Source: Kaistella sp. (GTDB taxonomy: Bacteria > Bacteroidota > Bacteroidia > Flavobacteriales > Weeksellaceae). From it: a stretch of 64,000 bases of DNA. Numbering within the stretch: the stretch's first letter is position 1; the number at the start of each line of letters is the position of its first letter. A model generated the notes under the pieces. That model was not told where the DNA came from. It saw nothing but the letters and a program-made list of their open reading frames with translations, and did no database searches. Positions 5,110 through 50,570 of the stretch are shown here, piece by piece. Made by a program: the position numbers and the translations under genes. The stretch lies in NCBI GenBank assembly GCA_019459085.1, contig JAIBEW010000034.1:18767-82766 (forward strand), written 5' to 3'.

Positions 5110-5168
5110 ATGATTAGTTTATTTTTTACTGTTACTATTTTTTTATTTTTTTGAGATCGTTCCCAATT

Positions 5169-7906: not shown

Positions 7907-8599
7907 TTAAACTAAAACCCTTTGGGTAATGAATTTGTCACTCTCGATGATGCCGTCTTTCAGGATGACGTTTCTCTTCGTTTCCGCTGCCACGTCGGGT
8001 TCATGGGTCACGACGATGATGGTTTTTCCCCCGCGGTTGATTTCCTGCAGAAGTTTCATGATATCGTACGTGGTTTTTGAATCCAGCGCGCCGGTTGGCT
8101 CATCGGCAAGGATGATTTTTGGATTCGTGATTAAAGCTCTTGCGATGGCCACCCTCTGTTTCTGTCCGCCCGAAAGTTCATTCGGCAGGTGAGTGGCCCA
8201 TTCCGCAATCCCCACTTTTTCCAGATATTCCATAGCCCTTTGGTTGCGTTCTTTTCGCGGAACGTCTTGGTAGTAGAGTGGTAGGGCAACATTTTCAAGA
8301 GCGGTTTTGTATCCGATGAGGTTGAAGGACTGGAAAATAAATCCCAGAAACTTACTGCGGTATTCGGCTGATTTTACTTCCGAAAGATCTTCAATAGGAA
8401 TTCCATCCAGCTTGTAAACACCCGAATCTTTTTCGTCCAGGATCCCGATGATGTTCAGCAAAGTGGATTTTCCGGAACCGGAACTTCCCATAATCGAAAC
8501 AAATTCGCCTTCTTCAATATTCAGGTTGATGCCTTTCAGCACATGAAGCTTGCTCTTTCCGGTGTCATAGGATTTATGGAGGTTCTCAATAACTAACAT
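7907..8599 (-). CDS. ABC transporter ATP-binding protein (MacB/LolD-type)
   Basis: 230 aa. Walker A GSSGSGKST, signature LSGGQKQR, Walker B ILADEPTGALD. Confidence 0.9.
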   Translation of the reverse strand: MLVIENLHKSYDTGKSKLHVLKGINLNIEEGEFVSIMGSSGSGKSTLLNIIGILDEKDSGVYKLDGIPIEDLSEVKSAEYRSKFLGFIFQSFNLIGYKTALENVALPLYYQDVPRKERNQRAMEYLEKVGIAEWATHLPNELSGGQKQRVAIARALITNPKIILADEPTGALDSKTTYDIMKLLQEINRGGKTIIVVTHEPDVAAETKRNVILKDGIIESDKFITQRVLV

Positions 8600-10712: not shown

Positions 10713-12368
10713 ATGGAAGAACAATCGAAAATCTGGTGGCTGAACGAAGAGTCCGAACAAATGCTGAACCGCGGCTATTTACTGAAAGGGGAAACCGTTG
10801 ACGGCGCGATCCTCAGAATTACGTCTGCAGCCGCAAAAAGATTATACAAACCTGAGCTGCAGCCTGCTTTCGAGGAAATGATCAGGAAAGGCTGGATCAG
10901 CTTTTCGTCTCCCGTTTGGGCCAATATGGGAACCGAACGCGGTTTGCCGATTTCGTGCTTCAACGTGCATGTTCCCGATAATATCGAAGGAATCACGCAT
11001 AAACTCGGCGAAGTGATTATGCAGACCAAAATCGGTGGCGGAACTTCCGGATATTTCGGAGAGCTCAGAAACCGCGGAACTGCCGTAACGGATAACGGAA
11101 AATCTTCCGGCGCAGTGTCGTTTATGAAGCTTTACGATACCGCGATGGATGTGGTTTCGCAGGGCGGCGTCCGTCGCGGTGCTTTTGCCGCTTATCTGGA
11201 CATTGACCACGGTGATATTGAAGAATTTTTATCGATCAAGGATATTGGAAGTCCGATTCAGAACCTCTTTACCGGAATCTGTGTTCCGGATTACTGGATG
11301 CAGGACATGATTGATGGCGATATGGACAAGCGTAAAATCTGGGCACGCGTGCTGGAAAGCCGTCAGCAGAAAGGTTTGCCTTACATTTTCTTTACCGATA
11401 ATGTGAACCGGAACAAACCGCAGGTCTACAAAGACCACGGAATGATGGTGAATGCGAGTAACCTGTGTTCGGAAATCATGCTTCCTTCAAGTGCTGAGGA
11501 ATCTTTTATCTGCTGTCTTTCGTCGATGAATCTTGAGCTGTACGACGAATGGAAAGACACGAACGCCGTGAAACTGGCGATTTATTTTCTAGATGCTGTT
11601 TTATCTGAATTCATCGAGAAAACCGAAGGAAATTACTATTTAACCGGAGCCAGAAACTTTGCCCTTCGTCACCGTGCGCTTGGTTTGGGCGTTTTGGGCT
11701 ATCATTCCTATCTGCAGAAAAATATGATTCCGTTTGAAAGTTTTGAGGCAACACAGTTCAACGCGAGAGCGTTCAGACAGATTAAAGAACAGTCGTTGCA
11801 GGCATCACAGGAACTCGCCAATATTTACGGTGAGCCGGAACTATTGAAAGGCTACGGAATGCGGAACACGACCACAATGGCGATTGCTCCAACCACTTCC
11901 AGTTCAGCCATTTTGGGTCAGACTTCCCCGGGAATTGAGCCTTTTGCCTCGAATTATTACAAAGCCGGTCTGGCGAAGGGGAATTTCATGCGCAAGAACA
12001 AATACCTCGCGAAACTTTTGGAAGAAAAAGGACTCGACAATGAAGAAACGTGGAGAACCATTATGCTGAATCACGGTTCTGTGCAGCAGCTGAAGGAACT
12101 GACGGATGAAGAGAAAGCAGTTTTCAAAACCTTCAGGGAAATATCGCCAATGGAAATTATTTCGCAGGCCGCGCAAAGACAGCAGTACATCGATCAGGCA
12201 CAGTCATTGAATTTACAGATCCCGTCGACAATGCCGGTAAAAGATGTGAACTACCTCTACATCGAAGCTTGGAAAAAAGGAGTGAAAACGTTGTATTACC
12301 AAAGAAGTTCATCGGTTTCCAAAGAAATGATGGTGAATTTTGTAAGTTGTAGTTCTTGTGAAGCGTAA
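10713..12368 (+). CDS. nrdA: ribonucleotide reductase alpha subunit, short form without ATP-cone
   Basis: 551 aa. Motifs include SCFNVHVPDNIEGI, NLCSEIMLP and AIAPTTSSS, with a C-terminal CSSCEA redox tail. There is no N-terminal ATP-cone. Confidence 0.9.
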   Translation: MEEQSKIWWLNEESEQMLNRGYLLKGETVDGAILRITSAAAKRLYKPELQPAFEEMIRKGWISFSSPVWANMGTERGLPISCFNVHVPDNIEGITHKLGEVIMQTKIGGGTSGYFGELRNRGTAVTDNGKSSGAVSFMKLYDTAMDVVSQGGVRRGAFAAYLDIDHGDIEEFLSIKDIGSPIQNLFTGICVPDYWMQDMIDGDMDKRKIWARVLESRQQKGLPYIFFTDNVNRNKPQVYKDHGMMVNASNLCSEIMLPSSAEESFICCLSSMNLELYDEWKDTNAVKLAIYFLDAVLSEFIEKTEGNYYLTGARNFALRHRALGLGVLGYHSYLQKNMIPFESFEATQFNARAFRQIKEQSLQASQELANIYGEPELLKGYGMRNTTTMAIAPTTSSSAILGQTSPGIEPFASNYYKAGLAKGNFMRKNKYLAKLLEEKGLDNEETWRTIMLNHGSVQQLKELTDEEKAVFKTFREISPMEIISQAAQRQQYIDQAQSLNLQIPSTMPVKDVNYLYIEAWKKGVKTLYYQRSSSVSKEMMVNFVSCSSCEA

Positions 12369-12403
12369 TTGAGAACAAAGAACAAAGAATAAAGAATAAA
12401 GAG

Positions 12404-12690
12404 GAGCCAGGGCAAAAGTGTTCCGTAAAATGTAAAAGTAAAATGTACAGAAAGTTTCGTGGCTGCAGATAGTGCTGATTTTGGGATTTGTGCAATTTGT
12501 GTAAATATTGGTGTCCTTTGTTTGCGAGGAGGAGGTGGTCCCTGAGCGAAGTCGAAGGGAACGACAACGAAGCAATCCCCTCTCGGACTCCGATGCTTTA
12601 TTCAGACCGCAATTTTTTTGTGCAATTGGTGTAAATATTGGTGTCCTTTTGTGTTTAAGAAGGTATGAGTAAAGAACAAAGAGACAAGAC
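12404..12690 (+). repeat. composite intergenic element, copy I (modules A-B-D-C-D-A')
   Basis: Collinear with 17199-17527 and 18214-18488. Order: gagccagggcaaaag words, gtaaaatgtaaaag words, the tgtgtaaatattggtgtcctttgt module, the 90-nt C module, then aaagaacaaagaga words. Confidence 0.8.
12522..12612 (+). repeat. C module copy 1 (ttgcgaggaggaggtggtccctgagcgaagtcgaagggaac...gaagcaatccc...ttcagaccgc)
   Basis: About 94% identical by eye to 18297-18387. Flanked by 34-nt direct repeats at 12488-12520 and 12617-12650. Confidence 0.8.
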
Positions 12691-12693
12691 ATG

Positions 12694-12719
12694 ACCGCAG
12701 ATTTTTCTGCGGTTTTTTT
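12694..12719 (+). terminator. Rho-independent terminator (probable nrdA terminator)
   Basis: The stem accgcag (12694-12700) pairs with ctgcggt (12707-12713). Loop is attttt and a T7 run follows. Confidence 0.65.
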
Positions 12720-12920
12720 GTGTTTTTCCCCGTGTTCTGTGTAAATTCTCCGTGCCCTCTGTGGTTAAGAAGAGCAAGAGATGGTAAGCCATACGCAGGA
12801 GTTGATAACTAGCGTCCCAGCCTAAAGCATATAAGCCTAAAGCCAAAATGTCTGTGGTTTTTTATACCTTTTCTGTGTGCTCAGTGTGAATTCTTTTGTG
12901 TTCTCTGTGGTTAAAAGGTT

Positions 12921-13093
12921 AAAGAATCAAGAGCCAGGGCAAAGGTATCATGTAAAAGTACAGTAGGTTTTGTTGCTGCATATAGTGCTGGTTTAGATTT
13001 TGTGCAATTTGTGTAAATATTGGTGTCCTTTGTGGTTACAATAACAGGATTAAAGAGCAAAGAATAAAGAGTAAAGAACAAAGAGACAAGACA
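12921..13093 (+). repeat. composite intergenic element, copy IV (A-B-D-A', no C module)
   Basis: Collinear with 12404-12520 plus 12660-12690. It has a single D module (12998-13036) and no C insertion. Confidence 0.75.
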
Positions 13094-13097
13094 ATTA

Positions 13098-13121
13098 CCG
13101 CGGAATTTCTGCGGGTTTTTT
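13098..13121 (+). terminator. Rho-independent terminator (paralogous to 12694-12719)
   Basis: Stem ccgcgg/ctgcgg with one G.U pair, loop aattt, then a T6 run. The same aaagaacaaagagacaagaca lead-in precedes it as at 12670. Confidence 0.55.
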
Positions 13122-13123
13122 AT

Positions 13124-13131
13124 TATATTTG
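13124..13131 (+). promoter_or_regulatory. Bacteroidota -7 box (TAtaTTTG)
   Basis: Matches TAnnTTTG and ends 5 nt before the ATG at 13137. This would give a leaderless or near-leaderless mRNA. Confidence 0.3.
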
Positions 13132-13136
13132 AAGTG

Positions 13137-13739
13137 ATGAGAAACAAGGTTTTTATTTTTTCAATGTTCCTGGTTTTTACAGGAGTCTCCGCACAGAAAA
13201 AACAGATTTATGTGAATGACCAATTTGCAGAAATTCCTAAAGCTGAATTTATGCAGGGCAATAATGAAATATTCTACAATATTAATTTTGAGAAAGAAGA
13301 TACGGTGTACAACGTACGCGTTCAAAGGAAAACACAGGGGATGTTATCCGCTGAAGAAATGGCTGCGTTAAAAAGTAACCTCAACCATTCTTTGGAACGT
13401 CGTTTAGTCATCAGTTATTATCCCGGATTAGACGCATGCAACAAAAGTTCAGATAATAATCCTTATGTTATTTCAGACTTAAAATCGTACCCCAAAAAGT
13501 TCAAACAAGCAGGAGTTGATTTTCTGCTTCTTTACATCAACAGTGAAGGCCTGAAAAATAGGATGAAGAAGTTTGACTGGAAAGAAGATAAAGATCAATT
13601 TGTTCATAATATGTTCCTGAAAATTCATTATCCATGTGATTCATCCATTGTGCTTTTCCCAGACGGGCGCTTCGTCACTTTTAAGGGGGAACACAGTTGG
13701 GGAGACGTCTTTGATACCGCAGTATCTAAAAATAAATAA
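13137..13739 (+). CDS. hypothetical secreted protein
   Basis: About 200 aa with an N-terminal signal peptide (MRNKVFIFSMFLVFTGVSAQ). The ATG at 13137 is preferred over the GTG at 13134. No family recognised. Confidence 0.55.
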   Translation: MRNKVFIFSMFLVFTGVSAQKKQIYVNDQFAEIPKAEFMQGNNEIFYNINFEKEDTVYNVRVQRKTQGMLSAEEMAALKSNLNHSLERRLVISYYPGLDACNKSSDNNPYVISDLKSYPKKFKQAGVDFLLLYINSEGLKNRMKKFDWKEDKDQFVHNMFLKIHYPCDSSIVLFPDGRFVTFKGEHSWGDVFDTAVSKNK

Positions 13740-13754
13740 ACAAATCAGTACATT

Positions 13755-14639
13755 ATGAAATTCGGACAAGTAGAAGACCCTTCGCAAATTGATTTTACCC
13801 TTCCTGATGACCATCCCAAAACTGGGACAATCCTGAAGAAATCCAAAGCCAGAGACCTGGAAATCCGTATCGGCTGTGCGAAATGGAACAAAACCGACCT
13901 CAAAGGATTTTATCCGAAAGGCACGAAGGACGAACTGACCTATTACGCGACGCAGTTCAATTCCATTGAGCTGAATGCTACTTTTTACGGGATGCCTTCG
14001 CCTGACCAAGTCTTGACGTGGAAGGAAAAAACTCCGGACGATTTCAGGTTTTTCCCGAAGATTACCAACACGGTTTCGCATTTCCGCAGGCTGCTGAATA
14101 TTACCGATGTCGTGACCCAGTTTGCCACTTCGGTTCTGAATTTTGATGAAAAACTGGGGATGGTTTTCCTGCAGCTTCACGACAATTTCAAACCCAAAGA
14201 TTACGAAAGACTCGAAAAGTTTATCGAAGACTGGCCGGAAGAAGTCCCTTTGGGGGTAGAACTCCGGAACAGTGAGTGGTTTTCAGACGAGGAAGTGTTC
14301 AATACCACGATGGCACTTTTTGAAAAACACCGCATCACCAATATTATTGTCGACACCGCCGGAAGAAGGGATATGCTTCACATGAGACTCACGACACCGG
14401 TGGCGTTTGTGCGGTACGTAGGCGCCAATGCAGAAAGCGATTACACCAGACTCGACGACTGGCTCACGAGAATTGCAGAATGGAAAGCAGCAGGTCTTGA
14501 AAAACTGTATTTCTTTGTGCACCAGAATATAGAGAAAGCATCACCTTTGCTTTCGGCGTATTTTATTGAAAAAGTAAATAAAGAATTCGGAGTGGAGATT
14601 CATGTTCCGCAGATGGCGGAGCCGAAAACGTTGTTTTGA
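13755..14639 (+). CDS. DUF72 (YecE/UPF0759) family protein
   Basis: 294 aa. Characteristic motifs: IRIGCAKWNK...FYP, YYATQFNSIELNATFY, TPDDFRFFPKI. Confidence 0.8.
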   Translation: MKFGQVEDPSQIDFTLPDDHPKTGTILKKSKARDLEIRIGCAKWNKTDLKGFYPKGTKDELTYYATQFNSIELNATFYGMPSPDQVLTWKEKTPDDFRFFPKITNTVSHFRRLLNITDVVTQFATSVLNFDEKLGMVFLQLHDNFKPKDYERLEKFIEDWPEEVPLGVELRNSEWFSDEEVFNTTMALFEKHRITNIIVDTAGRRDMLHMRLTTPVAFVRYVGANAESDYTRLDDWLTRIAEWKAAGLEKLYFFVHQNIEKASPLLSAYFIEKVNKEFGVEIHVPQMAEPKTLF

Positions 14640-14784
14640 TAGAATCAAGAATCAAGAGCCAAGGCAAAAGTAAAATGTATAATTGTAGAATGCAAAATGT
14701 ACACGGGGTTTGTGCGACAGATTAAGCCGGGATACGGTGTTGTGCTTTTGGTGCAGAAATTTGTGTTCTTTGTGTTTAGGAAGG
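14640..14784 (+). repeat. composite intergenic element, partial copy (A-B-D)
   Basis: Heptads aatcaag aatcaag agccaag gcaaaag taaaatg tataatt gtagaat gcaaaat start at 14643, just after the stop. A D-like module (gtgcagaaatttgtgttctttgtgtttagg) follows. Confidence 0.7.
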
Positions 14785-15134
14785 CGGAAAGCTGGGAGAT
14801 GGAAGCCAGATGTGAGATCCTGCTGATTTAGAAAGATGAAGACTATGGTTAAGGTTAAGGAAACCATGCCTTTAGCAGGCTTTTAATATGCTTAAAGTAG
14901 GGATTAGGTATGGCTCAACCCCGGGAATGTTCTTTCTGTAAAGGGTTGAAAGGGTATTGATGAGGTAAAAATCGCTACAGAAAATAAATGTAAAATGAAC
15001 AAAGTATTCATGTTAAATGTACTGAATACGAGTACCACCAATACTAAAAAAGTCAAAGCCGCCAACTTTATGGCCAACGACTCTACCGCTTAACAACTAA
15101 CGACTGAACAACTTAACGGTTTCTATACTGCTAA

Positions 15135-15431
15135 TTACGCCAAAAACTCAATCTGTTTGTCTTTAAAGTCATTTTTCTCCACAAGTTTGTTCATGGTTTT
15201 CAGCATTTTTCTGCGGAGTTTTGCGATTTTCCGGATGTTTTTGTCGGGGCTGTAATCGAAGATGCTGTCTTCAAAGGAGAACGTGTCGCCTTCTGCAAAA
15301 CTGATGTCGTTTTTCTTTAGTTCTTTCAGAAGCATCAGATTGGTCATGGTTTCGAGCAGTTCATGTTCCAAAAAAGCCAGACTTTGTAGGGATTTCAGGA
15401 CCTCTTTCTTATATTTCTTTTTGTTTTTCAT
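15135..15431 (-). CDS. hypothetical protein (98 aa)
   Basis: Start taken at the internal ATG (MKNKKKYKK...). The 74 codons upstream in the track ORF run through low-complexity repeat words. Confidence 0.45.
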   Translation of the reverse strand: MKNKKKYKKEVLKSLQSLAFLEHELLETMTNLMLLKELKKNDISFAEGDTFSFEDSIFDYSPDKNIRKIAKLRRKMLKTMNKLVEKNDFKDKQIEFLA

Positions 15432-15472
15432 TTCTTGAATAATTGAGTCGGTAAAGATATTCAAAATTATTG

Positions 15473-15703
15473 GAAGATTGAAGAGCCATGGCAAAAGTAA
15501 AAAGAGCCAAGGCAAAAGGCAAAAGTAAACTGTACAATGTAAAAAGTAAAAAGTAAAATGTAAAAGGGGTTTAAGAGGGGAACTCTTGCAGGAGGAGGAT
15601 CTTGTGTCATTAGTGAAATAATTGGTGTGATTTGTGGTTAGCGGTAAGAGCAAAGAGCAAAGAAAAAAGTGAAAAGTACCAAATACGAAGTGCGAATTAC
15701 GAA
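15473..15703 (+). repeat. composite intergenic element, partial copy (A-B, C-remnant, D, A')
   Basis: Heptad blocks: gaagatt gaagagc catggca aaagtaa aaagagc caaggca aaaggca aaagtaa ... aatgtaa (15473-15563) and gagcaaa gagcaaa gaaaaaa gtgaaaa gtaccaa atacgaa gtgcgaa ttacgaa (15648-15703). The stretch cttgcaggaggaggatcttg occupies the C position. Confidence 0.7.
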
Positions 15704-15817
15704 AAATAGAGAAGTAGAACTAAAAAGCCAAAAGCACAAGACCAGAAAAACAAAACAACAAAATGCCCCTCAAAACAAAAAACAACATCGCCATTCTTCA
15801 CCAATGAATTTTTTACT

Positions 15818-15825
15818 TAAATTTG
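15818..15825 (+). promoter_or_regulatory. Bacteroidota -7 box (TAaaTTTG) upstream of glyA
   Basis: Matches TAnnTTTG about 105 nt upstream of the glyA ATG. No clear -33 element was seen. Confidence 0.25.
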
Positions 15826-15880
15826 AAACTCCAAATCTGATGGGGGATTTCTACAGTTTGACATCACATATTTGGCACCA

Positions 15881-15930
15881 ACATCAGACATCCAACACGA
15901 AACATCCAACACCTAACACCCAACATTTAA
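15881..15930 (+). repeat. CA-rich G-poor heptad leader abutting the glyA start
   Basis: Reads acatcag acatcca acacgaa acatcca acaccta acaccca acattta, then a-ATG. Confidence 0.75.
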
Positions 15931-17199
15931 ATGCAGGACCCGATTTTTGACCTTATTGAAAAGGAAAGACAGAGACAGACCCACGGAATTGAACTCATCG
16001 CTTCAGAGAATTTCGTTTCCGATAATGTGATGAAAGCCATGGGCAGCGTCCTCACGAATAAATATGCAGAAGGTTATCCGGGCAAAAGATATTACGGCGG
16101 CTGCGAAGTTGTGGACGAAGTTGAAAACCTCGCCATTGCTCGCGCTAAAGAGCTTTTCGGCGTGAATTATGTGAATGTACAGCCGCACTCCGGTTCCCAG
16201 GCCAACGCGGCCATTTATCTGGCCTGTCTGAAACCTGGCGATGCCATTCTTGGCTTGGATCTGTCGATGGGCGGCCACCTGACTCACGGAAGTTTCGTGA
16301 ATTTTTCAGGAATTCAGTACCAGGCAAATTTTTACGGTGTTGACCGTGAAAGTGGCCTTATCGACTATGATGCGATGCGCCAGAAAGCCCTCGAAGTAAA
16401 ACCGAAAATGATTATTGCAGGGTTTTCCGCCTATTCCAGGGATCTTGACTATCAAAAATACCGAGAAGTGGCTGATGAAGTGGGGGCTACTTTATGGGCC
16501 GATATCGCGCATCCGGCCGGTTTAATTGCCAAAGGGCTGCTTAATAATCCTTTTGAACACTGCCATGTTGTAACCACCACCACGCACAAAACCCTGCGCG
16601 GACCACGTGGCGGCATGATCATGATGGGCAAGGATTTTGAAAATCCATTTGGACATAAAACCCCTAAAGGCGAAACGAAAATGATGAGCGCGGTGCTCGA
16701 CAGTGCTGTCTTCCCGGGAATTCAGGGCGGTCCGCTAGAGCATGTGATCGGAGCGAAAGCCGTGGCGTTTGCGGAAGCCATCGATGAAAAGTTTGAAATC
16801 TACACAAAACAGGTCATTGCGAATGCTCAGGCACTTTCGAAGGCAATGGTGGACTGCGGTTTCAACATCGTGAGCGGCGGCACCGATAACCACCTGATGC
16901 TCATCGATCTGAGAAATAAAAATGTAAACGGCAAGGAAACCGAGAAAGCCCTTGTAAAAGCCGATATCACCTGTAACAAAAATATGGTGCCGTTCGACGA
17001 CAAGTCGGCCTTCACCACTTCAGGAATCCGTCTCGGAACGGCAGCCATCACCACGCGGGGTATGAAGGAAAATGACATGGAAATCATCGCCGGTCTCATC
17101 AATGATGTCGTGATGAACCTTAAAGACGACACCGTTATTTACGGAGTCCGCAAAAAAGTGAATGAACTCATGGATTCGCGGCCATTGTTTCAGTATTAG
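15931..17199 (+). CDS. glyA: serine hydroxymethyltransferase
   Basis: 422 aa. Canonical motifs: [39 protein letters not shown] (PLP lysine). Confidence 0.95.
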
Positions 17200-17527
17200 A
17201 GGCAAGAGGCAAGAGCCAAGGAAAAAGGCAAAAGTAGAAAGGATCTGTACAATGTAAAAAGTACAATGTAAAGCTGCTCCTGCGCAAAATTCAACATCGT
17301 CTTTGCGAGGAGGAGGTGGTCCCTGAGCGAAGTCGAAGGGAACGACGACGAAGCAATCCCATCTCGGAATCTGATGATTTATTCAGATTGCTGTTAATTT
17401 GTGTCCCTTGTGTAAATATTTGTGTTCTTTGTGGTTAATAGAGCAGTTGGGAATAAAGAATAAAGAGGAAAGAACAAAGAGAAAAGGCAAAAGAGCCAAG
17501 TAAAAAGTAAAAGGTAAAGAGGCTTCG
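17199..17527 (+). repeat. composite intergenic element, copy II (A-B-C-D-A'), 47 heptads in one phase
   Basis: See the findings. It starts inside the glyA TAG stop codon. Confidence 0.8.
17303..17392 (+). repeat. C module copy 2
   Basis: About 92% identical by eye to 18297-18387. Confidence 0.8.
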
Positions 17528-17643
17528 TTATAGACGTCGGGAGTTGCAGAAAGCAGCTTATCTACAAGCAATTAGATTCAGTCAATAATTTTGGCTGATT
17601 TTTTTTTAATTTTTAAAGAATCGCTGCTTTCCGGGATTCCGTT

Positions 17644-17651
17644 TAATTTTG
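17644..17651 (+). promoter_or_regulatory. Bacteroidota -7 box (TAatTTTG) abutting the heptamer array
   Basis: Matches TAnnTTTG and ends 1 nt before the CATCTAA array. A second match lies at 17586-17593. No clear -33 element was seen. Confidence 0.3.
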
Positions 17652-17713
17652 CATCTAACATCTAACATCTAACATCTAACATCTAACATCTAACATCTAA
17701 CATCTAACATCTA
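17652..17713 (+). repeat. perfect tandem heptamer (CATCTAA) x 8.9
   Basis: Eight perfect copies span 17652-17707, followed by the partial copy catcta. There is no G in the 62 nt. It ends 1 nt before the GTG start of recX. Confidence 0.95.
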
Positions 17714-17714
17714 C

Positions 17715-18191
17715 GTGGAACACAAATCCTACACTTTCCTTGAGATCAAACAGAAAATGGTGAACTACTGTGTTTATCAGGACCGCTGCCATCAGGAAGT
17801 GGAGCAGAAGATGCGGGATTATCTCGTTATTCCCGAAGCGAAAGAGGAAATCCTGCTCTATCTGATGAAGGAAAATTTCCTGAACGAAGAACGATTCACA
17901 CGCAGCTACATCCGTGGCAAATTCTACATGAAATCATGGGGAAGGAACAAAATCAAAAACCATCTCAAATTCAAAGGCATTTCTGAAAAGCTTATCAACC
18001 GGTGTTTCGATGAAATCGATGAGCAGGATTATGAGAACATCCTCAAAAAGATCTATGAAAACCATTATTCAAAGCAGAAAGGCCTGAAGGAATATCAGAA
18101 AAAATCCAAAACCATTACGTACCTGATTGGTAGGGGGTTTGAGTATGAGGAGATCAGGCGGGTGATGGAAGGTGATGAGGAGGGAATGTGA
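17715..18191 (+). CDS. recX: recombination regulator RecX
   Basis: 158 aa. The motif YCVYQDRCHQEVEQKM and the three-repeat helical layout are typical of RecX. GTG start; no ATG lies upstream in frame. Confidence 0.8.
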   Translation: MEHKSYTFLEIKQKMVNYCVYQDRCHQEVEQKMRDYLVIPEAKEEILLYLMKENFLNEERFTRSYIRGKFYMKSWGRNKIKNHLKFKGISEKLINRCFDEIDEQDYENILKKIYENHYSKQKGLKEYQKKSKTITYLIGRGFEYEEIRRVMEGDEEGM

Positions 18192-18213
18192 TCATGAGTT
18201 AATGAGTGGCGTT

Positions 18214-18488
18214 AGAGCCAAGGAAAAAGAAAAAGGATCATGTAAAATGTAAAAGTACAATGTAAAGGTGCTTCTGCGTAAAATTTGGCAGCGTCTTTGC
18301 GAGGAGGAGGTGGTCCCTGAGCGAAGTCGAAGGGAACTTCGACGAAGCAATCCCATCTCGGACTCGGATGCTTTATTCAGACCGCAATTTTTTGATGCAA
18401 TTGGTGTAAATATTCGTGTTCTTTGTGTTTAAGAGAGCAGTTGGGAATAAAGAGAAAAGAACAAAGAGAAAAGAAAGAAAAGCAAAAA
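18214..18488 (+). repeat. composite intergenic element, copy III (A-B-C-D-A')
   Basis: Collinear with 17213-17500 over its whole length. Confidence 0.8.
18297..18387 (+). repeat. C module copy 3
   Basis: ttgcgaggaggaggtggtccctgagcgaagtcgaagggaacttcgacgaagcaatcccatctcggactcggatgctttattcagaccgc. Confidence 0.8.
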
Positions 18489-18530
18489 GGGGTGTTTAAG
18501 GTAGGCTTTTTGGTGATGGTTTTTTTTACA

Positions 18531-18554
18531 CCGGTGCGATGCGCCGGTTTTTTT
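18531..18554 (+). terminator. Rho-independent terminator after recX and its composite element
   Basis: The stem ccggtgc pairs with gcgccgg (one G.U pair). Loop is gat and a T7 run follows. Confidence 0.55.
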
Positions 18555-18908
18555 GTGGCAAAAACGCTGTAGAATAGCTGTTCACATTCGGGTAATAAAG
18601 GGCTTTAAAATATGATGTTAACTTAACATAATTATTTTCTTTACACTTGATTTTTTGTATAATTTTGCTTCTGGAATTCAGCATGATTTTTGCTGGTAAA
18701 GCACAGAGGGTTAATTCATTAGGAAGATACCCCTTTATAGAATTTTCATAATTTCCCGCGTTCTGCTGTGTTTCAGTGTACCGGAAATTGATGGAGGTTT
18801 CAGTGCTTTAACGATAGCACCGGCTAATGATTTTGAATGGTTTTGAGGGAAGCGCTGAGAGGTCTCCATGCGCACCCTTAATAAGAATTGATACAAAAAA
18901 ACAAACAT

Positions 18909-21900
18909 ATGAAGACAAAACAATTTTCTTTTCTAAAACAGGCTCTTGCCTTAGTGATGGCATTCTGCTCCGTATTCATGTGGGGACAGACGGTCTGGAC
19001 CTATGATTTTGGAACAGGAACAGGAACATTTACATCAAGCACGGCTTCTACCAGTTTTTTACCGGCCCCGCAATCAAATGGAGGAACAGCTAGAGTAAGG
19101 GTCGGAACAAATCCTGGCAGCATTATTTTAGCCAATCCGGGACTGGCTTTGGGAAGTGGCAGTGAAATGCAATTTAAAACCAATTCGGGGAGTACGTCTA
19201 CTACAAAATTTTCCATTTATGATTATACTGCATCTAAAGCCGGTTATTTCAAAGCGAACGTAACCTTAAATGGCGGAACTACAGGGGTGTATAATCTCAT
19301 GATAGGAGATGGCGCTAATTTTTCAGATAACAACGCAATAGCTAACGCACAGGTATTTGCGGGACTACGCCTTACATTTGGTGCTTCCAACAGTATTTCC
19401 ACGGCAGTTTTAAGTAATGCCACATGGGTGACCACAGGCTTAACCAATGCTTCCACACTTTTTGCCCAAAGCGACACCAATATATATGCAATTGAGATTT
19501 ATTATAATAATACTACAACTCCAACTTCTTACGAAAGAAGTGGGTCCAATTCTCTGACAAATGCTACCTGGGATTTGTGGGTAAACGGAACAAAGGTAGG
19601 GACAGGTCTTGCAAAGGGCGCTTTCGGAACAAATCTAAATGTCGATTCCTTTGCTTTGAACCATCAAATTAGCGTGGCCGCAGGTACACAGGGTACGGTT
19701 TATCTGGACGATCTCGAGTATTCCAACGGTTTACCTGCTGTAGCCACCCCTACCATCTCAAGTATGCCTACCTCACTCAACGGATTCACCTACGTTCAAG
19801 GTGCTGGTCCTTCAACGGAACAAAGTTTTTCCGTGACGGGTTCCAATCTGTCGGCTTCTATTGATGTGAGTGCATCTGCAAACTGGGAGGTTTCACTGGC
19901 TGCAGCTTCAGGATACGCCAATGCGGTACAGCTTCCTGCTACAGGAGGTACCGTGTATACCCGACTGAGCGCAGGCTTAACGGAGAACCCAACCTATACC
20001 GGGAGTATAACACTGGCCAGTACCGGTGCAACCGATGTTACGGTGAACCTTTCCGGGTCGGTAACTGCTCCGCCTGTTACGCCTGTTGTGACCGGTGCAT
20101 CGCTAAACGGTACAGTGGGAACGGTATTTTCTTATCAGATACAGGCTACAGGAACGCCCGATTCCTATGCAGTATCTACCGGAACCCTGCCCGCAGGACT
20201 CTCGCTGAACACAACGACCGGTTTAATCTCCGGAACCCCTACGGCTGCAGGAAACGTGAGCGTGGACGTTACCGCTACCAATGGCGCCGGGACATCGGTG
20301 CCTGCGACGCTGGATTTCACCATTGCACAGGGTACCCAGACGGCGGCGCTGCCTGATCTTACCCCGAGTGTAGGTGCCTCGGCGATCACTTTGCCGGCCG
20401 CCACGAATGCCGGCCTCACGATTACCTATATCAGCGATAATCCTGCAGTAGCTTCCGTTTCCGGAAACACGCTTACCGTTGGAAACACCGGAACCGCAAC
20501 CGTAACCGCGAGCAATGCAGGCAACGCAGATTATACCGCATTTAACGACACCTTTACGGTGACCGTCACCAATCCGCCGGTGAGTATTCTGGAGTTTGAT
20601 TTTGCAGGGATTGCGGGAGATGAAGTTTCTTTCGGATCTTCTACAAATGCCACGGGCTTAGAGGCTTCAGTCATTACGAGAGGAGCCGGCCTTACCGCTT
20701 CCACCAATGCTGACCGCTTCAATGCCATCAACTGGGCTACTACTTCCATCGCCAATGCGGTGTCCGGTAACGATTATATGGAGTTTACCGTTACGCCAGG
20801 TTTGGGTTATCAGTTCAGCGTTTCAGCCATCACCTTTCAGATTCAGCGTTCAGGCACGGGATTAAGTGCTGTTGCTTTACGAAGCTCTGCTGACAATTAT
20901 GCCGCCGATCTTGACGGGCAGAAGACTGTAACCGATAATACCGGAACCCAGGCCTTTACATTCAACTTTATCCAGGCTGATTCTACAGGTCCAGTAATAT
21001 ATCGACTTTATGGTTATTCTGAAGCTGCAGGCGGATCGGCCGGTATCGGAGACTTCACCGGAAGCGACCTTACCATCACCGGAAATGTAACCGTGGATCC
21101 TGCAAAAACCGTATGGGCAGGTTCTCCCGGAGCATGGACGAACGGTACACCGGTGGCAGGTCTGCAAGCAATCATCGCAGCAGACTATGCTGGTACCTCT
21201 TTCGAATCCCAATCCCTAACCGTGAACACCGGCTTTACCCTTACGGTAAATACTTTCGTGAAGACGGGCGATGTGGAGAACAACGGCAACATTACGGTGG
21301 CCAATAATGCCAATTTTGTGCAGACCGGAAACTTTACCGCAGGCACGGGTTCAGCCTTTAAGGTATGGAGAGACACAAAACCGGCAAAACGGCTGGCCTA
21401 TATCGGATGGAGCAGTCCCCTCGAAAGTGCTGCCCAGACCCTGAAAGCGTTTTCGTACGGAAGACTGGCCGACGGCGTTACACCACAGTCTGCCACCGGA
21501 ACGGTCGATAATCGTTTCCTGACGTATAACAATGAAGTGTTTGTCTCTACACCGGCTACCGGAACGTTTACACCTGCAGGAAAAGGGTTTCAGATCCGGA
21601 CTCCGAATGATTTTACGACCACACCGCAGGTCTTCCACGGTTTGTTTGAAGGCAGCAAACCGAACTCCGGAACCGTGAACTATGACCATTCCGGTATTAC
21701 CGGTGACTTCGTGCTGCTGGGGAATCCGTATCCAAGTGCTATTTCGGTGCAGGAATTTCTGAATGCAAATCCGGGAACCACAGAAACTGTATACTTCTGG
21801 AACAGTGAAGCTGAAATGGATGTGAACGGCCAGTACACCGGCACGAACTATAATACCTATGCACCGGGAACAGGAGCTGTGCCCCTGAATTCGGTGAACG

Positions 21901-22682
21901 GATATATTCCGGTTGCGCAGGGCTTCTTCGTGGAGCGTGGTACTGCAGCCACTCCTATTGTGTTTACCAATGCGATGCGACAGACTACCGAAACTGGGAT
22001 ATTCAGTAAAGCCCCCGCAACGGATAAGTTCTGGCTTCAGCTGAATACAACGACCGGTGCCGCCCCTCAGATGCTTTTCGCCTTCAACAGCGCGGCGACT
22101 GCCGGTATCGATGCCGGATATGATGCCAAAATGCTCGACAGCAATACCGAATCGCTGTATACGAAAGTCGGCACCGAAAAACTCATCATTGATTCACACG
22201 GTGCTTTCCAGAATACCGACCACTTCGATGTTTTCCTGAATACCAACACTGTGCGGAACTATACCGTTTCGCTGCTGCACGGCGACGGGATCTTTGCGGG
22301 TTCTCAGGCCATTTACCTCCGCGATAAAGTCACCGGCACGTTCACGAACCTGAGTACGGGAAGCTACAGCTTCACATCGACAGGTACAGGCGAGGAAAAC
22401 CGTTTTGAAATCCTTTTCCAGCCCCAGTCGATACTGGGTACTGCGGAAACCGTAAAAGATGAGGTCATCATCTATTCTGCCGGAACCAACGTTCATGTAA
22501 AGTCAGCGGAGAAAATAAGCCGTATAGAACTCTATGACCTGAGCGGAAGGCTTTTAGCGGCATCCAAAGGAAATGCCCGTACCGAAATGACCATTGCAGT
22601 CAACTATACAGGACCTGTTTTGGTGCAGGCAGTACTGATGAACGGTAATGTAGTGAGGAAGAAGGTGATGGTGGGTGAATAA
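18909..22682 (+). CDS. large T9SS-sorted cell-surface protein with Ig-like repeats
   Basis: The ATG at 18909 yields a signal peptide (MKTKQFSFLKQALALVMAFCSVFMWGQ). An Ig-like segment is present (PAGLSLNTTTGLISGTPTAAG), along with a Big-like segment (NPAVASVSGNTLTVGNTGTATVTA). The C-terminal ~80 aa (ISRIELYDLSGRLL...VVRKKVMV) resemble a type A T9SS sorting domain. Confidence 0.8.
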   Translation: MKTKQFSFLKQALALVMAFCSVFMWGQTVWTYDFGTGTGTFTSSTASTSFLPAPQSNGGTARVRVGTNPGSIILANPGLALGSGSEMQFKTNSGSTSTTKFSIYDYTASKAGYFKANVTLNGGTTGVYNLMIGDGANFSDNNAIANAQVFAGLRLTFGASNSISTAVLSNATWVTTGLTNASTLFAQSDTNIYAIEIYYNNTTTPTSYERSGSNSLTNATWDLWVNGTKVGTGLAKGAFGTNLNVDSFALNHQISVAAGTQGTVYLDDLEYSNGLPAVATPTISSMPTSLNGFTYVQGAGPSTEQSFSVTGSNLSASIDVSASANWEVSLAAASGYANAVQLPATGGTVYTRLSAGLTENPTYTGSITLASTGATDVTVNLSGSVTAPPVTPVVTGASLNGTVGTVFSYQIQATGTPDSYAVSTGTLPAGLSLNTTTGLISGTPTAAGNVSVDVTATNGAGTSVPATLDFTIAQGTQTAALPDLTPSVGASAITLPAATNAGLTITYISDNPAVASVSGNTLTVGNTGTATVTASNAGNADYTAFNDTFTVTVTNPPVSILEFDFAGIAGDEVSFGSSTNATGLEASVITRGAGLTASTNADRFNAINWATTSIANAVSGNDYMEFTVTPGLGYQFSVSAITFQIQRSGTGLSAVALRSSADNYAADLDGQKTVTDNTGTQAFTFNFIQADSTGPVIYRLYGYSEAAGGSAGIGDFTGSDLTITGNVTVDPAKTVWAGSPGAWTNGTPVAGLQAIIAADYAGTSFESQSLTVNTGFTLTVNTFVKTGDVENNGNITVANNANFVQTGNFTAGTGSAFKVWRDTKPAKRLAYIGWSSPLESAAQTLKAFSYGRLADGVTPQSATGTVDNRFLTYNNEVFVSTPATGTFTPAGKGFQIRTPNDFTTTPQVFHGLFEGSKPNSGTVNYDHSGITGDFVLLGNPYPSAISVQEFLNANPGTTETVYFWNSEAEMDVNGQYTGTNYNTYAPGTGAVPLNSVNGYIPVAQGFFVERGTAATPIVFTNAMRQTTETGIFSKAPATDKFWLQLNTTTGAAPQMLFAFNSAATAGIDAGYDAKMLDSNTESLYTKVGTEKLIIDSHGAFQNTDHFDVFLNTNTVRNYTVSLLHGDGIFAGSQAIYLRDKVTGTFTNLSTGSYSFTSTGTGEENRFEILFQPQSILGTAETVKDEVIIYSAGTNVHVKSAEKISRIELYDLSGRLLAASKGNARTEMTIAVNYTGPVLVQAVLMNGNVVRKKVMVGE

Positions 22683-22758
22683 GAGCCAGGAACCAAGAAT
22701 CAAGAGCCAAGGAAAAAGTAAAATGAGCCTGATAAAAAGGCGAAAGGGAAGGATGAAG

Positions 22759-22953
22759 GATGAGTGATGAAGTGGGGAAAAGTACGAAGTGGGAAGTGCG
22801 AATGACGAAAATGGAACCATGGAGGATGAGTGATGGAGTCGGGATGCGGAATGCCGGTTATGAGTGATGGGGGAAAAGTGCGAAGTGCGAAGTGCGAATG
22901 ACGAAATGGAAAGGATGAAGTCGGGATGCGGGATGCCAGTTATGAGTGATGAA
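22759..22953 (+). repeat. purine-rich imperfect tandem repeat, period about 100 nt ([X Y][X' Y'])
   Basis: X at 22759-22824 matches X' at 22859-22913 (gtgcgaa/tgacgaa words). Y at 22825-22869 matches Y' at 22914-22953 (gtcgggatgcgg(a/g)atgcc(g/a)gttatgagtgatg). Confidence 0.75.
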
Positions 22954-23010
22954 GCATGAGTTAGGAGGCTGGAACAGGATTTTAGAAGCGATAGTTGAAA
23001 GATTTTCAGA

Positions 23011-23137
23011 TTAAAAATTAATAATCCAAAATCCAAAATTAAAAATCCATTTCCTAACATCTAACCTCAAACCTCTAATCCCCAACACCCAGCATCCAGC
23101 ATCCAAACATTATCTAACAACAAAAACAAACAACATC
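23011..23137 (+). other. G-depleted CA/T-rich heptad leader abutting the start codon
   Basis: Only 2 G in 127 nt (at 23092 and 23099). Heptads include tccaaaa tccaaaa ttaaaaa tccattt cctaaca tctaacc tcaaacc tctaatc cccaaca cccagca tccagca tccaaac. Confidence 0.85.
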
Positions 23138-23398
23138 ATGAAAAAATTATATACAGCAGTTTTAGTAGCAGGATTTTCCGCTTTCGGATGGGCACAGGAG
23201 GAAATTGTGAATCCCTTTAAAAAAACCGAAGAACAGTATTATGCCTTTGAAGTAGCCCGTAACCCTGGAGCAGGCGGCGATCTTGGCGGCGATGACGCTC
23301 CGGCGGCGCCAATTGACAGCCCGGTGCCGTATCTGGTGGTGACGGGACTCATCCTCGCGGCATGGTATGGTAGAAGGAAGGTGGGAATGACGAAGTGA
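23138..23398 (+). CDS. small secreted protein with a PEP-CTERM-like (PID motif) C-terminal sorting signal
   Basis: 86 aa. Signal peptide MKKLYTAVLVAGFSAFGWAQ, Gly/Asp/Ala-rich linker, then APID-SPVPYLVVTGLILAAWYG-RRK (motif, TM helix, basic cluster). Confidence 0.6.
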   Translation: MKKLYTAVLVAGFSAFGWAQEEIVNPFKKTEEQYYAFEVARNPGAGGDLGGDDAPAAPIDSPVPYLVVTGLILAAWYGRRKVGMTK

Positions 23399-23480
23399 GA
23401 GGTGGGAATTACGAAGTACGAATGACGAAGTGGGAATGAGAAGCGCTGGAAGCTGGATGCTTGAGACTGAATACTGACCG

Positions 23481-24108
23481 CTGACCGCCGAACGCGAAAT
23501 GTTCCCAATCCAACTTCAGCACCGTCATTGCGAGGCGGAGATGGTCCCTGAGCGAAGTCGAAGGGAACGACAACGAAGCAATCCCGTCTTAAACCCCATT
23601 TATGCCCCTCGTGTCCCCCTTTGTGCCCTTTGTGGTTAAGAGAAGACAGAAATAAGAGCAAAGATCCCAAAAACGGGGTCCGGAATGAGGAAATGTAATA
23701 ATAAGTTAATATGGTCCCGCAAAATGGAGGTGGAAGCCAAACGCTGAATGCCGGGTCCGGAGCTTTCTTCGAATCCCATTTGTGTCCCTGGTGCCTCCCT
23801 TTGTGCCCTTTGTGGTTGGAAAGCAGGATGCTGGAAGCCGAAAGCTAAACGCTGACCGCCAACCGCCAAATGTTCCCAATCCCTCTTCACCACCGTCATC
23901 GCCAGGCGGAGGAAGGACAACGAAGCAATCCCGTCTTGAACTCCATTTATGTCCCTGGTGCCTCCCTTTGTGACTTTGTGGTTAAGGGAAAACAGAATAA
24001 AGAAAAAAGAGCAAAGATCCCAAAAACGGGGTCCGGAATGAGGAAATATAATAATTAGTTAATATGATCCTCGAAAAATGGAGGTGGATGCTGAACGCTG
24101 ACCGCCGA
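23481..24108 (+). repeat. tandem duplication of a ~260-275-nt unit, period 371 nt
   Basis: Unit 1 is 23481-23755 and unit 2 is 23852-24108. Both run ctgaccgcc...aaatgttcccaatcc...C-like core...gcaatcccgtctt...tttgtg(c/a)c(c)tttgtggttaag...aagatcccaaaaacggggtccggaatgaggaaat...ggaggtgga. A third D-like fragment lies at 23771-23817. Confidence 0.8.
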
Positions 24109-24234
24109 AAGCTAACCGCCTAAACAACTACACAACTCAACCTCTTAACAACTCAGCCTTCCACGACTGAACGACTCAACAACTGAACGACACCACGACT
24201 CAACAACTCACCACCCCCACAAAATTTCTTTCCA

Positions 24235-24266
24235 TTGCCTCCAAATCACTTTTTTCCTTATATTTG
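24235..24266 (+). promoter_or_regulatory. candidate Bacteroidota promoter for wza/wzc locus 1 (TTG-N21-TAtaTTTG)
   Basis: A -33-like aTTG lies at 24234-24237 and a -7 box TATATTTG at 24259-24266. The spacer is 21 nt. The box ends 20 nt upstream of the ATG at 24286. Confidence 0.45.
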
Positions 24267-24285
24267 CCACAATTAGCTTTTACGA

Positions 24286-25086
24286 ATGAAAAAATTCACT
24301 AGCCTTCTGGGGCTTCTCTTTATTCTGGCAGCAATGCTTTCATGCAAGCCTAAGCAGAATATGGTGTATATGGAAACCGACCGTGCCGTGGCCAATGAAC
24401 AGGTACAGCAGGCGGTGTTTGAAGGTTCGCGTCTTCAGTCGGGGGACCTTCTTGACATCAAGGTAACCGCATTTGACGAATATGCCGTGCGCCCTTTCAA
24501 TCTCCACTCCATGAACCAGGTGAGTAGTCCGGATGAAGTGGCCAGCAGTCAGGCAGCCCAGGCTGCGCCTCAAGGCTATATCATTGACAATGATGGCTAT
24601 CTATATTTCCCGGTACTCGGGAAACTCTATGTAAAGGGTATGACGATGGCGCAACTCCGCGAAGATCTGGAGAAACGCCTTTTAACCTATCTTTCTGACC
24701 CTATGGTCTCGATCCGTCAGCTGAATTTTAATGTGACCGTTCTAGGTGAAGTGAAAAAACCCGGCCAGTATACAAGTGCTTCCGATAAAGTAACCGTACT
24801 GCAGGCCCTCGGGATGGCAGGCGACATGACCGACTTTGGAGACCGGACTCGCGTGAAACTCGTTCGGAACGAAGACGGAGCGACGCATACCTATCTGATT
24901 GATTTTACCGATGCCAATATCACCTCCTCCCCTTACTATTATATGCAGCAGAACGATGTGCTGTATGTGGAGCCGGATGAGATCAAGAAAAAATCGGCAA
25001 ATGTGGACCCGAACCGTAACCTGGCCTTCCAGATCGGCGGTATCGTGTTAGGTCTGGCTTCGGTAATTATTACGCTATTAAGATAA
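24286..25086 (+). CDS. wza: polysaccharide export outer-membrane lipoprotein (Wza family), copy 1
   Basis: 266 aa. Lipobox AAMLSC, a Poly_export-like segment (GDLLDIKV...IDNDGYLYFPVLGKLYVKGMT) and an SLBB-like segment (VTVLGEVKKPGQY). Confidence 0.85.
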   Translation: MKKFTSLLGLLFILAAMLSCKPKQNMVYMETDRAVANEQVQQAVFEGSRLQSGDLLDIKVTAFDEYAVRPFNLHSMNQVSSPDEVASSQAAQAAPQGYIIDNDGYLYFPVLGKLYVKGMTMAQLREDLEKRLLTYLSDPMVSIRQLNFNVTVLGEVKKPGQYTSASDKVTVLQALGMAGDMTDFGDRTRVKLVRNEDGATHTYLIDFTDANITSSPYYYMQQNDVLYVEPDEIKKKSANVDPNRNLAFQIGGIVLGLASVIITLLR

Positions 25087-42159: not shown

Positions 42160-42391
42160 AAAAAAGCAACAAATGGGAACAGAATACTGGTGGTCACTTT
42201 TATGCTCGACTGAAATAGGTCGTGCGTGAGCTAACCGCCGAAAGCTGAACACCAACTGAAGAATACAGACAGGTGATAGCCGGAAATGGTAAACGGAAAA
42301 AAAGCAGTTGCGAACCGAATACTGCTGATCAGTTTGATAATAGACTGAAACAAGGCGTACGCCAGCTGAAGGCTGACTGCCGAAAACTGAA
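42160..42391 (+). repeat. diverged ~90-nt direct repeat inside the fnlA-fnlB spacer
   Basis: 42160-42250 resembles 42297-42391 at about 65-70% identity by eye. Both start aaaaaagca...gaatactg and end ccgaaa(g/a)ctgaac. Heptads ctgaagg ctgactg ccgaaaa ctgaacg ctcaaag ctagaaa run into the fnlB ATG. Confidence 0.6.
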
Positions 42392-42408
42392 CGCTCAAAG
42401 CTAGAAAA

Positions 42409-43609: not shown

Positions 43610-43662
43610 AAGAACCGCCCACTGACTGCCGAAAGCCAACCGCTGAAAGCTAAAAAAGATAT

Positions 43663-44021: not shown

Positions 44022-44070
44022 CTGAAAGCTGACCGCCGAAAGCTGACCGCTGAAAGCTCATAAATAAAAA
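44022..44070 (+). repeat. heptad word array abutting the fnlC start
   Basis: Reads ctgaaag ctgaccg ccgaaag ctgaccg ctgaaag ctcataa ataaaaa, then cca-ATG. Similar arrays lie at 43622-43656 and 42366-42407. Confidence 0.8.
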
Positions 44071-50493: not shown

Positions 50494-50500
50494 GAGGGTT

Positions 50501-50556: not shown

Positions 50557-50570
50557 GTCAACTGAAGGCT

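Follow-up and report, generated by a model that had tools for sequence, protein, structure and literature searches.

A mosaic of heptanucleotide arrays and dispersed repeats in the glyA-recX spacer of a Kaistella genome

Introduction

Tandem families of seven-nucleotide units spread through the non-coding DNA of one lineage are known from heterocystous cyanobacteria, whose short tandemly repeated repetitive (STRR) sequences use the words CCCCAGT, TTGGTCA and CAACAGT. Among the long simple sequence repeats (LSSRs) of most prokaryotic genomes, heptanucleotide repeats are the most abundant class according to Mrazek et al. (2007), whose results PMC4679880 and PMC4692102 summarise; the same two sources relate that this excess was attributed to slippage (Mrazek, Guo and Shah 2007). 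Intergenic assemblages of heptamers have been described in Elizabethkingia anophelis NUHP1, Gramella forsetii and Aequorivita sublithincola (MacGregor 2015, PMC4679880). In Haemophilus influenzae, phase-variable 7-bp repeats lie upstream of hmw1A and hmw2A (PMC8262952, PMC12721329), as perfect arrays of variable copy number between promoter and start codon. On a larger scale, the pneumococcal BOX elements and the enterobacterial bacterial interspersed mosaic elements and repetitive extragenic palindromes (BIME/REP) are dispersed and modular, with stem-loops and variable internal tandem modules, and often occupy the stretch from stop codon to terminator. Here we compare these systems with the spacer between glyA (serine hydroxymethyltransferase) and recX in a Kaistella sp. 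genome (assembly GCA_019459085.1, contig JAIBEW010000034.1, positions 18,767 to 82,766). The 64,000-nt stretch analysed is called the window, and all positions are given in its coordinates.

The glyA-recX arrays are another lineage's example of the known surplus of 7-base repeats between bacterial genes. An earlier note on this DNA, made from the sequence without database searches, held that no standard feature class explains them; heptanucleotide tandem repeats are, however, already recognised in what PMC4679880 and PMC4692102 report, including in E. anophelis, a member of the Weeksellaceae. With LSSRs as those sources characterise them, the Kaistella arrays share tandem 7-nt units, over-representation, intergenic position, variability of length and sequence among close relatives and the attribution to slippage. 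They differ from LSSRs so characterised in being mostly short and degenerate, in their many word families and in being interleaved with dispersed modules that are not simple sequence repeats (SSRs). The Elizabethkingia assemblages belong to the same family, and near-identical intergenic regions with larger heptamer assemblages, contigs of relatives that end in repeats and forward-oriented arrays near start codons are common to both (PMC4679880). That study was keyed on TAACTGA, and composite modules and a G-free bias of leaders are not described there.

The other systems are more distant. TAACTGA occurs seven times singly and never in tandem in the window, where STRR1-3, ATCTTTC, GGGAATC and GGGGATT likewise have no tandem occurrence; unlike the cyanobacterial hosts of STRR sequences, Kaistella belongs to the Bacteroidota, another phylum. 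Compared with the Haemophilus arrays as portrayed in PMC8262952 and PMC12721329, a comparison made from sequence alone, the word is different, the lineage is free-living or environmental, and the genes are housekeeping genes rather than surface adhesins. The likeness to BOX and BIME is architectural only: there is no Rfam match, the Kaistella modules are clade-specific, and the tandem unit is 7 nt instead of 45 nt. The earlier note had also set the arrays apart from clustered regularly interspaced short palindromic repeats (CRISPR), and we agree, as the units are 7 nt long and contiguous, against 25-50-nt repeats with unique spacers of similar length.

Structure of the glyA-recX spacer

The glyA gene (15931-17199, + strand) is a 422-aa open reading frame (ORF) that ends with the TAG at 17197-17199. 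Its product is identical to MBW8362800.1 from a Kaistella sp. metagenome-assembled genome (MAG), and it is 83-91% identical to Weeksellaceae glyA products. The spacer between glyA and recX measures 515 nt, and the interval examined here is its first 329 nt (17199-17527), which had been parsed in the earlier note as 47 consecutive heptamers in one phase. We scored the lag-7 identity of blocks within this interval against 500 dinucleotide-preserving shuffles. The block at 17199-17275 has a lag-7 identity of 0.61 (z 5.6) and that at 17451-17520 one of 0.70 (z 4.8), values reached by none of the shuffles in either case. The 175 nt between them (17276-17450) give 0.28 (z 0.7), which 120 of the 500 shuffles reached and which is the level of chance. 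Heptameric sequence thus makes up 45% of the interval, and 53% is non-heptameric.

The first heptad array (17198-17275, + strand) begins inside the glyA stop codon and is covered by Tandem Repeats Finder (TRF) rows at 17198-17220, 17218-17243 and 17246-17270. Its words are GAGGCAA twice, GAGCCAA, GGAAAAA, GGCAAAA and GTAGAAA (block A), followed by GTACAAT and GTAAAAA words displaced by one nucleotide (block B); homologous blocks lie at 14641, 15474, 18214 and 22694. The second array (17451-17520, + strand; TRF rows at 17451-17518) reads GAATAAA twice, GAGGAAA, GAACAAA, GAGAAAA, GGCAAAA, GAGCCAA, GTAAAAA, GTAAAAG and GTAAAGA (block A'), with homologous blocks at 12373, 13048, 15494, 18445 and 23988. 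The cleanest array of the spacer, which the earlier note had missed, is a perfect (CATCTAA)x8.9 at 17652-17713 (+ strand; TRF 100% matches, score 124), immediately upstream of recX. Head-to-tail 7-nt units, the mark of a heptanucleotide SSR, are therefore present at 17198-17275, 17451-17520 and 17652-17713 and lacking at 17276-17450.

These results bear directly on the parse into 47 in-phase heptamers. The heptad strings and their coordinates are right as written, in that slicing by 7 nt gives them and 329 equals 47 x 7, although only 46 words had been listed. The parse itself is uninformative, since every 329-nt string slices into 47 heptamers, and it fails for the central 53%. Neighbouring heptads had been said usually to share 4-7 positions, and in this slicing adjacent-heptad identity is indeed elevated for heptads 1-11 and 37-46, and only there; among heptads 12-36 neighbours match at 0-3 of 7 positions, apart from a single 4 and a single 5, as expected by chance. 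Nor is there a single phase: read as G-initial words, block B (GTACAAT, from 17247) is offset by 1 nt from block A, and the agreement in phase of A and A' (252 nt, or 36 x 7) is a coincidence expected one time in seven.

Dispersed modules and their composites

The non-heptameric centre (17276-17450, + strand) is a copy of a dispersed repeat. Its two parts are module C, which is rich in hairpins (about 17298-17394, core GGTCCCTGAGCGAAGTCGAAGGGAAC), and module D (17395-17450, core TGTTCTTTGTGGTTA). With 17270-17455 as the query against the window, blastn returned copies at 18292-18449 (87% identity over 158 nt), 12521-12606 (94% over 86 nt) and 23523-23585 (94% over 63 nt). Copies this similar (87-94% identical) with different boundaries mark the centre as a recently dispersed element, not as an array that decayed long ago. 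The module D core TGYNCTYTGTGKTTA has seven matches in the window against 0.01 expected, every one on the + strand; the closest relative in our sample (locus L001) carries four copies of module D in both orientations, and none was found in the 86 other related loci. Rfam yielded no family at the gathering threshold across the whole window, nor at E<=1 for 12300-24400, and a scan for tRNA and tmRNA gave none. A consensus fold of the module C/D copies comprises 37 pairs with one compensatory change among three near-identical copies, and single-sequence RNA folds are no better than those of shuffles (z about -1.2).

Two further observations concern the internal layout of the modules. At 12486-12658, module C stands between two module D copies of about 36 nt (D, C, D), a layout that may reflect insertion with duplication; in the 17.3-kb and 18.3-kb copies, the left flank of module C resembles a diverged D. 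In addition, a 21-nt hairpin of module C, CCCTGAGCGAAGTCGAAGGGA, occurs exactly in eight viral contigs (L090-L097, IMG/VR), whose GC content is 45-68% and whose flanks are unrelated, and locus L003 has a similar CCTGAGCGA...CGAAGG hairpin near 7955-7995. The CCCTGAGCGAAGTCGAAGGGA hairpin looks like a widely recurring short palindrome. There is no sign of a phage origin of the module C element, as the viral scan returned only this 21-mer, in unrelated high-GC contexts.

Heptads and modules recur together as composites. The interval 17199-17530 is collinear with 18206-18500, in the spacer after recX, at 85% column identity, with a paralogous extent of 17213-17495 against 18216-18490. The composite after recX (18213-18490, + strand; heptads, C, D, heptads) has a terminator-like hairpin behind it, at 18530-18548. 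Blocks of the A/B, D and A' kinds follow one another in the same order at about 12.4, 12.9, 14.6, 15.5, 18.2 and 22.7-24.0 kb. Of these + strand sites, 12372-12715 and about 12876-13125 are two composites that each end with a terminator-like hairpin. At 14641-14778, heptads beginning 2 nt past a stop codon precede a copy of module D, and at 15473-15703 heptads flank a module D-like segment (TRF, lag-7 shuffle test and block matches). A 1.6-kb spacer at 22681-24210 (lag-7 z=12.6) combines many heptad arrays, at least three D copies, one C copy, a small ORF at 23138-23398 and an 8-mer array. The repeats are thus dispersed, intergenic and built of several modules in variable combination, as in a mosaic intergenic repeat. 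The idea that the heptads were all generated in place is contradicted by the paralogy of the glyA composite with 18216-18490 and by the recurrence of the block order in at least five other spacers.

Period 7 across the window

The periodicity is not peculiar to glyA. In the intergenic DNA of the window, compared with 200 dinucleotide shuffles, lag 7 stands out with z=14.2, followed by lag 14 (9.8), lag 21 (9.3) and lag 28 (6.4), while the coding DNA of the window shows period 3 only. Among 85 TRF rows, 33 have period 7, 13 period 14 and 5 period 21, where a local shuffle yields ~0.8 period-7 rows. A lag-match segment finder detected 24 lag-7 arrays, compared with 0-7 arrays for lags from 4 to 13; 22 of the 24 lie outside ORF-based gene calls and the remaining two in an ORF judged spurious, so that all 24 are probably non-coding. 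The 11 further intervals that had been named as periodic are so (lag-7 identity 0.57-0.95, reached by 0-1 of 1000 shuffles), and the spacers of the first 9 kb do lack period 7 (z -0.5 to 0.6).

Two arrays illustrate the position beside stop codons. A + strand (AAGAATC)x7.7 array at 50501-50554 begins 8 nt past the stop of the + strand gene 49789-50493. A CGAAGGA-type array at 50796-50835, purine-rich on the - strand, directly follows the stop of the - strand gene 50834-51388, which has a Pfam CTP_transf_like match (cytidylyltransferase-like). The + strand ORF 50585-51250, which overlaps this gene, has no Pfam match and was judged spurious. The spacer between the two genes (50494-50833) is convergent, and the arrays of both meet at a hairpin near 50676-50701.

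Arrays in related genomes

Our sample of relatives comprised 88 Weeksellaceae loci (1.04 Mb). Their intergenic DNA holds 127 lag-7 and 102 lag-14 arrays, compared with 6-49 for other lags. At least one array is present in 47 of the 88 loci, at very variable density, and the closest relative carries 20 in 13 kb. Its glyA 3' spacer opens with the same TAG-AGGCAAGAG words and continues with AGATATC words. Across species, an array just after glyA is present in 3 of 80 and an array at the glyA 5' end in 1 of 80; because only 3 of 80 carry the former, the arrays at this locus are young. In a metagenomic relative (L089, 1337-1260, - strand), (GGGTGCT)4(GGATGTT)5 stands directly past the glyA stop, at the same position with unrelated words.

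We then compared related-locus pairs of at least 85% nucleotide identity for indels of at least 4 nt. Those that look like tandem duplications account for 7 of the 21 indels of 7 nt, 4 of the 11 of 14 nt and 1 of the 5 of 21 nt, and for only 3 of the 123 that have other lengths within 4-13 nt. Consistent with the bias in indel length that the earlier note had proposed as a check, duplication-like indels in related species are therefore almost only of 7, 14 or 21 nt. Related species of the Chryseobacterium group differ by 7-, 14-, 21- and 42-nt indels within arrays. An orthologous Chryseobacterium leader, placed between a perfect TAnnTTTG box and the ATG, contains 3, 3, 4, 4, 4, 6, 8, 9 or 13 copies of (AAYTATC). 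These indels and copy numbers support change by whole units, as slipped-strand mispairing predicts. The TAnnTTTG-(AAYTATC)n-ATG layout is seen in loci L022, L043, L044, L045, L050, L052, L057, L061, L063 and L069, at positions of about 4530-4956 (in L022, 7365-7385).

Leaders, terminators and array composition

The Bacteroidetes -7 promoter element has the consensus TAnnTTTG. A candidate box of this type, TAATTTTG (17644-17651, + strand), stands immediately before the CATCTAA array, which in turn ends 1 nt before the GTG of recX (17715-18191, + strand; Pfam RecX_HTH1, RecX_HTH2 and RecX_HTH3; start context as in the closest relative). The (CATCTAA)x8.9 array, which is free of G and has an RNA minimum free energy of -1.2 kcal/mol over 79 nt, is probably the whole 5' leader of recX. 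This layout of box, array and start is shared with the recX leader of C. aquaticum, where TAATTTTG is followed by (AACTATC)3, one unit different from the sister taxon. A perfect array abutting a start codon recalls a contingency locus, with the promoter assigned by consensus match only. Upstream of glyA, a degenerate C/A-rich array of the CCAACAT type (15878-15926, + strand; TRF period 7/14/21) ends 4 nt before the ATG, with a lag-7 identity of 0.67 that none of 1000 shuffles reached and a minimum free energy of -1.5 kcal/mol over 68 nt. It is probably the glyA 5' leader, and TAAATTTG at 15818-15825 matches the -7 consensus.

On the 3' side, a pattern scan found a terminator-like hairpin with a T9 run at 17578-17607 (+ strand). 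This is probably the glyA terminator, which would place the composite in a 3' untranslated region (UTR) of roughly 380 nt. Terminator-like hairpins with T-runs follow composites at 12693, 13098, 17578 and 18530, which suggests that composites lie in 3' UTRs of 325-380 nt. These promoter and terminator assignments are putative, because sigma-70 promoter and terminator pattern scans were not enriched over shuffles and TAnnTTTG is not enriched across the window (66 found, 56 expected). An 18-nt imperfect inverted repeat within 17540-17640, GGAGTTGCAGAAAGCAGC / GCTGCTTTCCGGGATTCC, is 78% complementary and encloses the hairpin at 17578-17598.

Position is associated with composition. We counted as leader arrays those lying no more than 60 nt upstream of a start codon, 47 arrays that use 27 different words. 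Their G content is 0.03, where all such leaders together have 0.118. In 42 of 44 cases C is commoner than G, 20 of the 27 words contain no G at all, and RNA minimum free energies are near zero; arrays beside start codons are unstructured as RNA because they are almost free of G. Their near lack of G across 27 words is possibly a new observation. Arrays after stop codons have no overall G bias and, in the window, are purine-rich on the sense strand, including 50796-50835 behind its minus-strand gene. Loci of Kaistella, Halpernia and Cruoricaptor have GAGCCAA-type arrays that set in 0-18 nt past a stop codon. Among the relatives, where minus-strand cases are few, the A/T skew set against flanking gene orientation divided 5 versus 4 in the '--' class, and the 'afterstop -' class was not flipped; single flipped arrays are 50796-50835 and 5460-5806 of the closest relative.

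Discussion

Taken from left to right, the glyA-recX spacer is a mosaic of a heptad array (17198-17275), a dispersed repeat (17276-17450), a second heptad array (17451-17520), a terminator-like hairpin, a candidate -7 box and (CATCTAA)9. We consider it probable that in such spacers 7-nt arrays made by slippage and decayed by mutation are mixed with dispersed modules in long untranslated regions. Arrays would lengthen and shorten in 7-nt units through slipped-strand mispairing at replication, and point mutations would later erode them. Composites have in addition been copied between spacers as wholes (heptads, module, heptads), and some heptad blocks were therefore inherited within a larger repeat and not made in place. 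The lineage would tolerate such DNA, presumably as largely neutral sequence transcribed in long 5' and 3' UTRs, and position would filter composition, so that the arrays persisting beside start codons are almost free of G. The earlier suggestion of heptamer-scale expansion followed by decay accordingly stands for the two flanking arrays and the other arrays, given the 7-, 14-, 21- and 42-nt indels and the 3-13 copies in relatives, and does not extend to the non-heptameric centre.

Several points weigh against this explanation. The first heptad blocks of the glyA and recX composites differ by 8 nt (7+1), which is not a clean multiple of 7. Word families recur in a fixed order, starting 0-18 nt past stop codons in several genera, which is more order than pure slippage and decay predict, and the near absence of G from leader arrays likewise exceeds that prediction; both leave room for function, for selection on UTR properties or for targeted insertion. 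The slippage model as used here does not account for the preference for 7 nt. Finally, change of length by whole units is seen in related species and not at the glyA-recX locus itself, as the search for conspecific strains yielded none: an exact-protein look-up returned one contig, identical to the window, a metagenome scan with the recX pattern gave only relatives of 72-80% identity, members of the 90% cluster are 91% identical, and the nearest genomes have 91% amino-acid identity in glyA.

The strongest competitor, which we regard as possible though not likely, takes the entire composite to be a non-autonomous mobile element, like a miniature inverted-repeat transposable element (MITE), BOX or REP, that inserts after stop codons, the heptads belonging to the element itself and not arising by local slippage. 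The multiple collinear copies speak for it, as do copies that start at or near stop codons, a module D restricted to the clade (the window and the closest relative, in both orientations in the latter), module C between two D-like segments at 12486-12658, and a short-read contig that ends inside the repeat. However, no terminal inverted repeat bounds the composite 17199-17527, as a MITE would have, and inspection of ORFs and Pfam matches in the window's spacers revealed no transposase, two absences that had already been noted from the sequence and that we confirm. Copy boundaries vary, modules also occur singly, and many arrays, such as CATCTAA and AAGAATC, are unattached to modules C or D. Insertion of mobile composites and the mosaic explanation are compatible and not mutually exclusive.

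We judge it unlikely that the arrays are functional RNA or expression elements, with leader arrays acting either as 'rheostats' through their copy number or as unstructured landing pads where translation starts in the absence of a Shine-Dalgarno sequence, and purine-rich arrays after stop codons as platforms for single-strand RNA-binding proteins in 3' UTRs. Leader arrays are G-free far beyond background and unstructured, which fits such a role, and the layout of -7 box, array of variable copy number and start codon recurs in several genera, at two genes. In three genera, GAGCCAA-type arrays begin 0-18 nt downstream of a stop, and the orientation of the 50796-50835 array is that of its - strand gene. 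Binding of heptamer repeats by CSP, S1 and Csr has been proposed (PMC4679880), and 7-bp repeats reportedly tune hmw1A expression in H. influenzae (PMC8262952). Yet the words at one position differ between close relatives (CATCTAA here, an 8-mer array of the AATCATCA type in the closest relative), of 80 species only 3 carry an array at the glyA 3' end and 1 at its 5' end, composite modules occur in both orientations in the closest relative, and the G-free bias could be a passive filter.

A more specific proposal is more doubtful still. In the Weeksellaceae, where initiation proceeds without Shine-Dalgarno pairing, G-free heptad arrays between -7 box and start might be selected, length-variable 5' leaders that tune expression, with (CATCTAA)9 before recX and (AAYTATC)3-13 in Chryseobacterium as exemplars; the ordered, purine-rich word families that start at stop codons might then be the matching 3'-UTR class, bound by a single-strand RNA-binding protein with a 7-nt footprint.

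It is very improbable that the 329 nt are one ancient in-phase array of 47 units whose centre is merely more decayed. The flanks are heptameric on both sides, their G-initial phases agree over the 252 nt, and TTTGTG words are loosely repeated in module D. This agreement has a chance probability of one in seven, however, block B is 1 nt out of phase with block A, the centre has no lag-7 excess, and its 87-94% identity to differently bounded copies elsewhere points away from decay. An assembly artefact, conceivable for a MAG given that repeats are difficult to assemble, can practically be dismissed, as a Logan contig (SRR15276277; possibly from the same reads) matches the window at 100% identity along 2898 nt that take in the arrays at 14641-15926 and 17199-17327, and as like arrays occur in isolate genomes of related genera.

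With the claim of 47 in-phase heptamers gone, the significance of the mosaic explanation is small: a known excess of 7-nt repeats is extended to one more lineage. In practical terms, heptad mosaics break short-read assemblies, enlarge spacers to 0.5-1.6 kb and create spurious ORFs (12309-12692, 15669-15950, 23239-23670 and 50585-51250, with no family match). The layout of -7 box, array and start with 3-13 copies may offer a simple system for the effects of leader length and composition on translation in the Bacteroidota, and the scarcity of G in start-codon arrays across 27 word families is possibly worth attention.

Other features of the window

Two small ORFs lie within repeat-rich spacers. 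The 86-aa ORF at 23138-23398, in the 1.6-kb spacer, appears to be unannotated and has no Pfam match; judged by eye, it seems to carry a signal peptide and, towards its C-terminus, a hydrophobic segment with RRK behind it, and it has C/A-rich arrays upstream and GAAGTRC-type arrays downstream. In the 1.3-kb spacer upstream of glyA, a 98-aa ORF on the - strand (15135-15431) has no Pfam match, and the 172-aa ORF listed for this place probably extends it too far, into heptad arrays.

At 43663-43818, inside a + strand gene cluster, lies a truncated fragment of a gene for a 23S rRNA-intervening-sequence protein (four-helix bundle, PF05635). A separate 14-nt word family, GAAAGCTGACCGCC, flanks the fragment and is met again in other spacers; related sites are 42232-42407, 43622-43656, 44022-44070, 23445-23495 and 23823-23869. 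Additionally, arrays of period 8 form a minority beside the heptamers: AACAACTC x11 (24123-24210), CCACATTA x5.4 (50753-50795) and TTTATTTT x4.4 (5118-5152), the last of which is A-rich on the sense strand of the preceding minus-strand gene.

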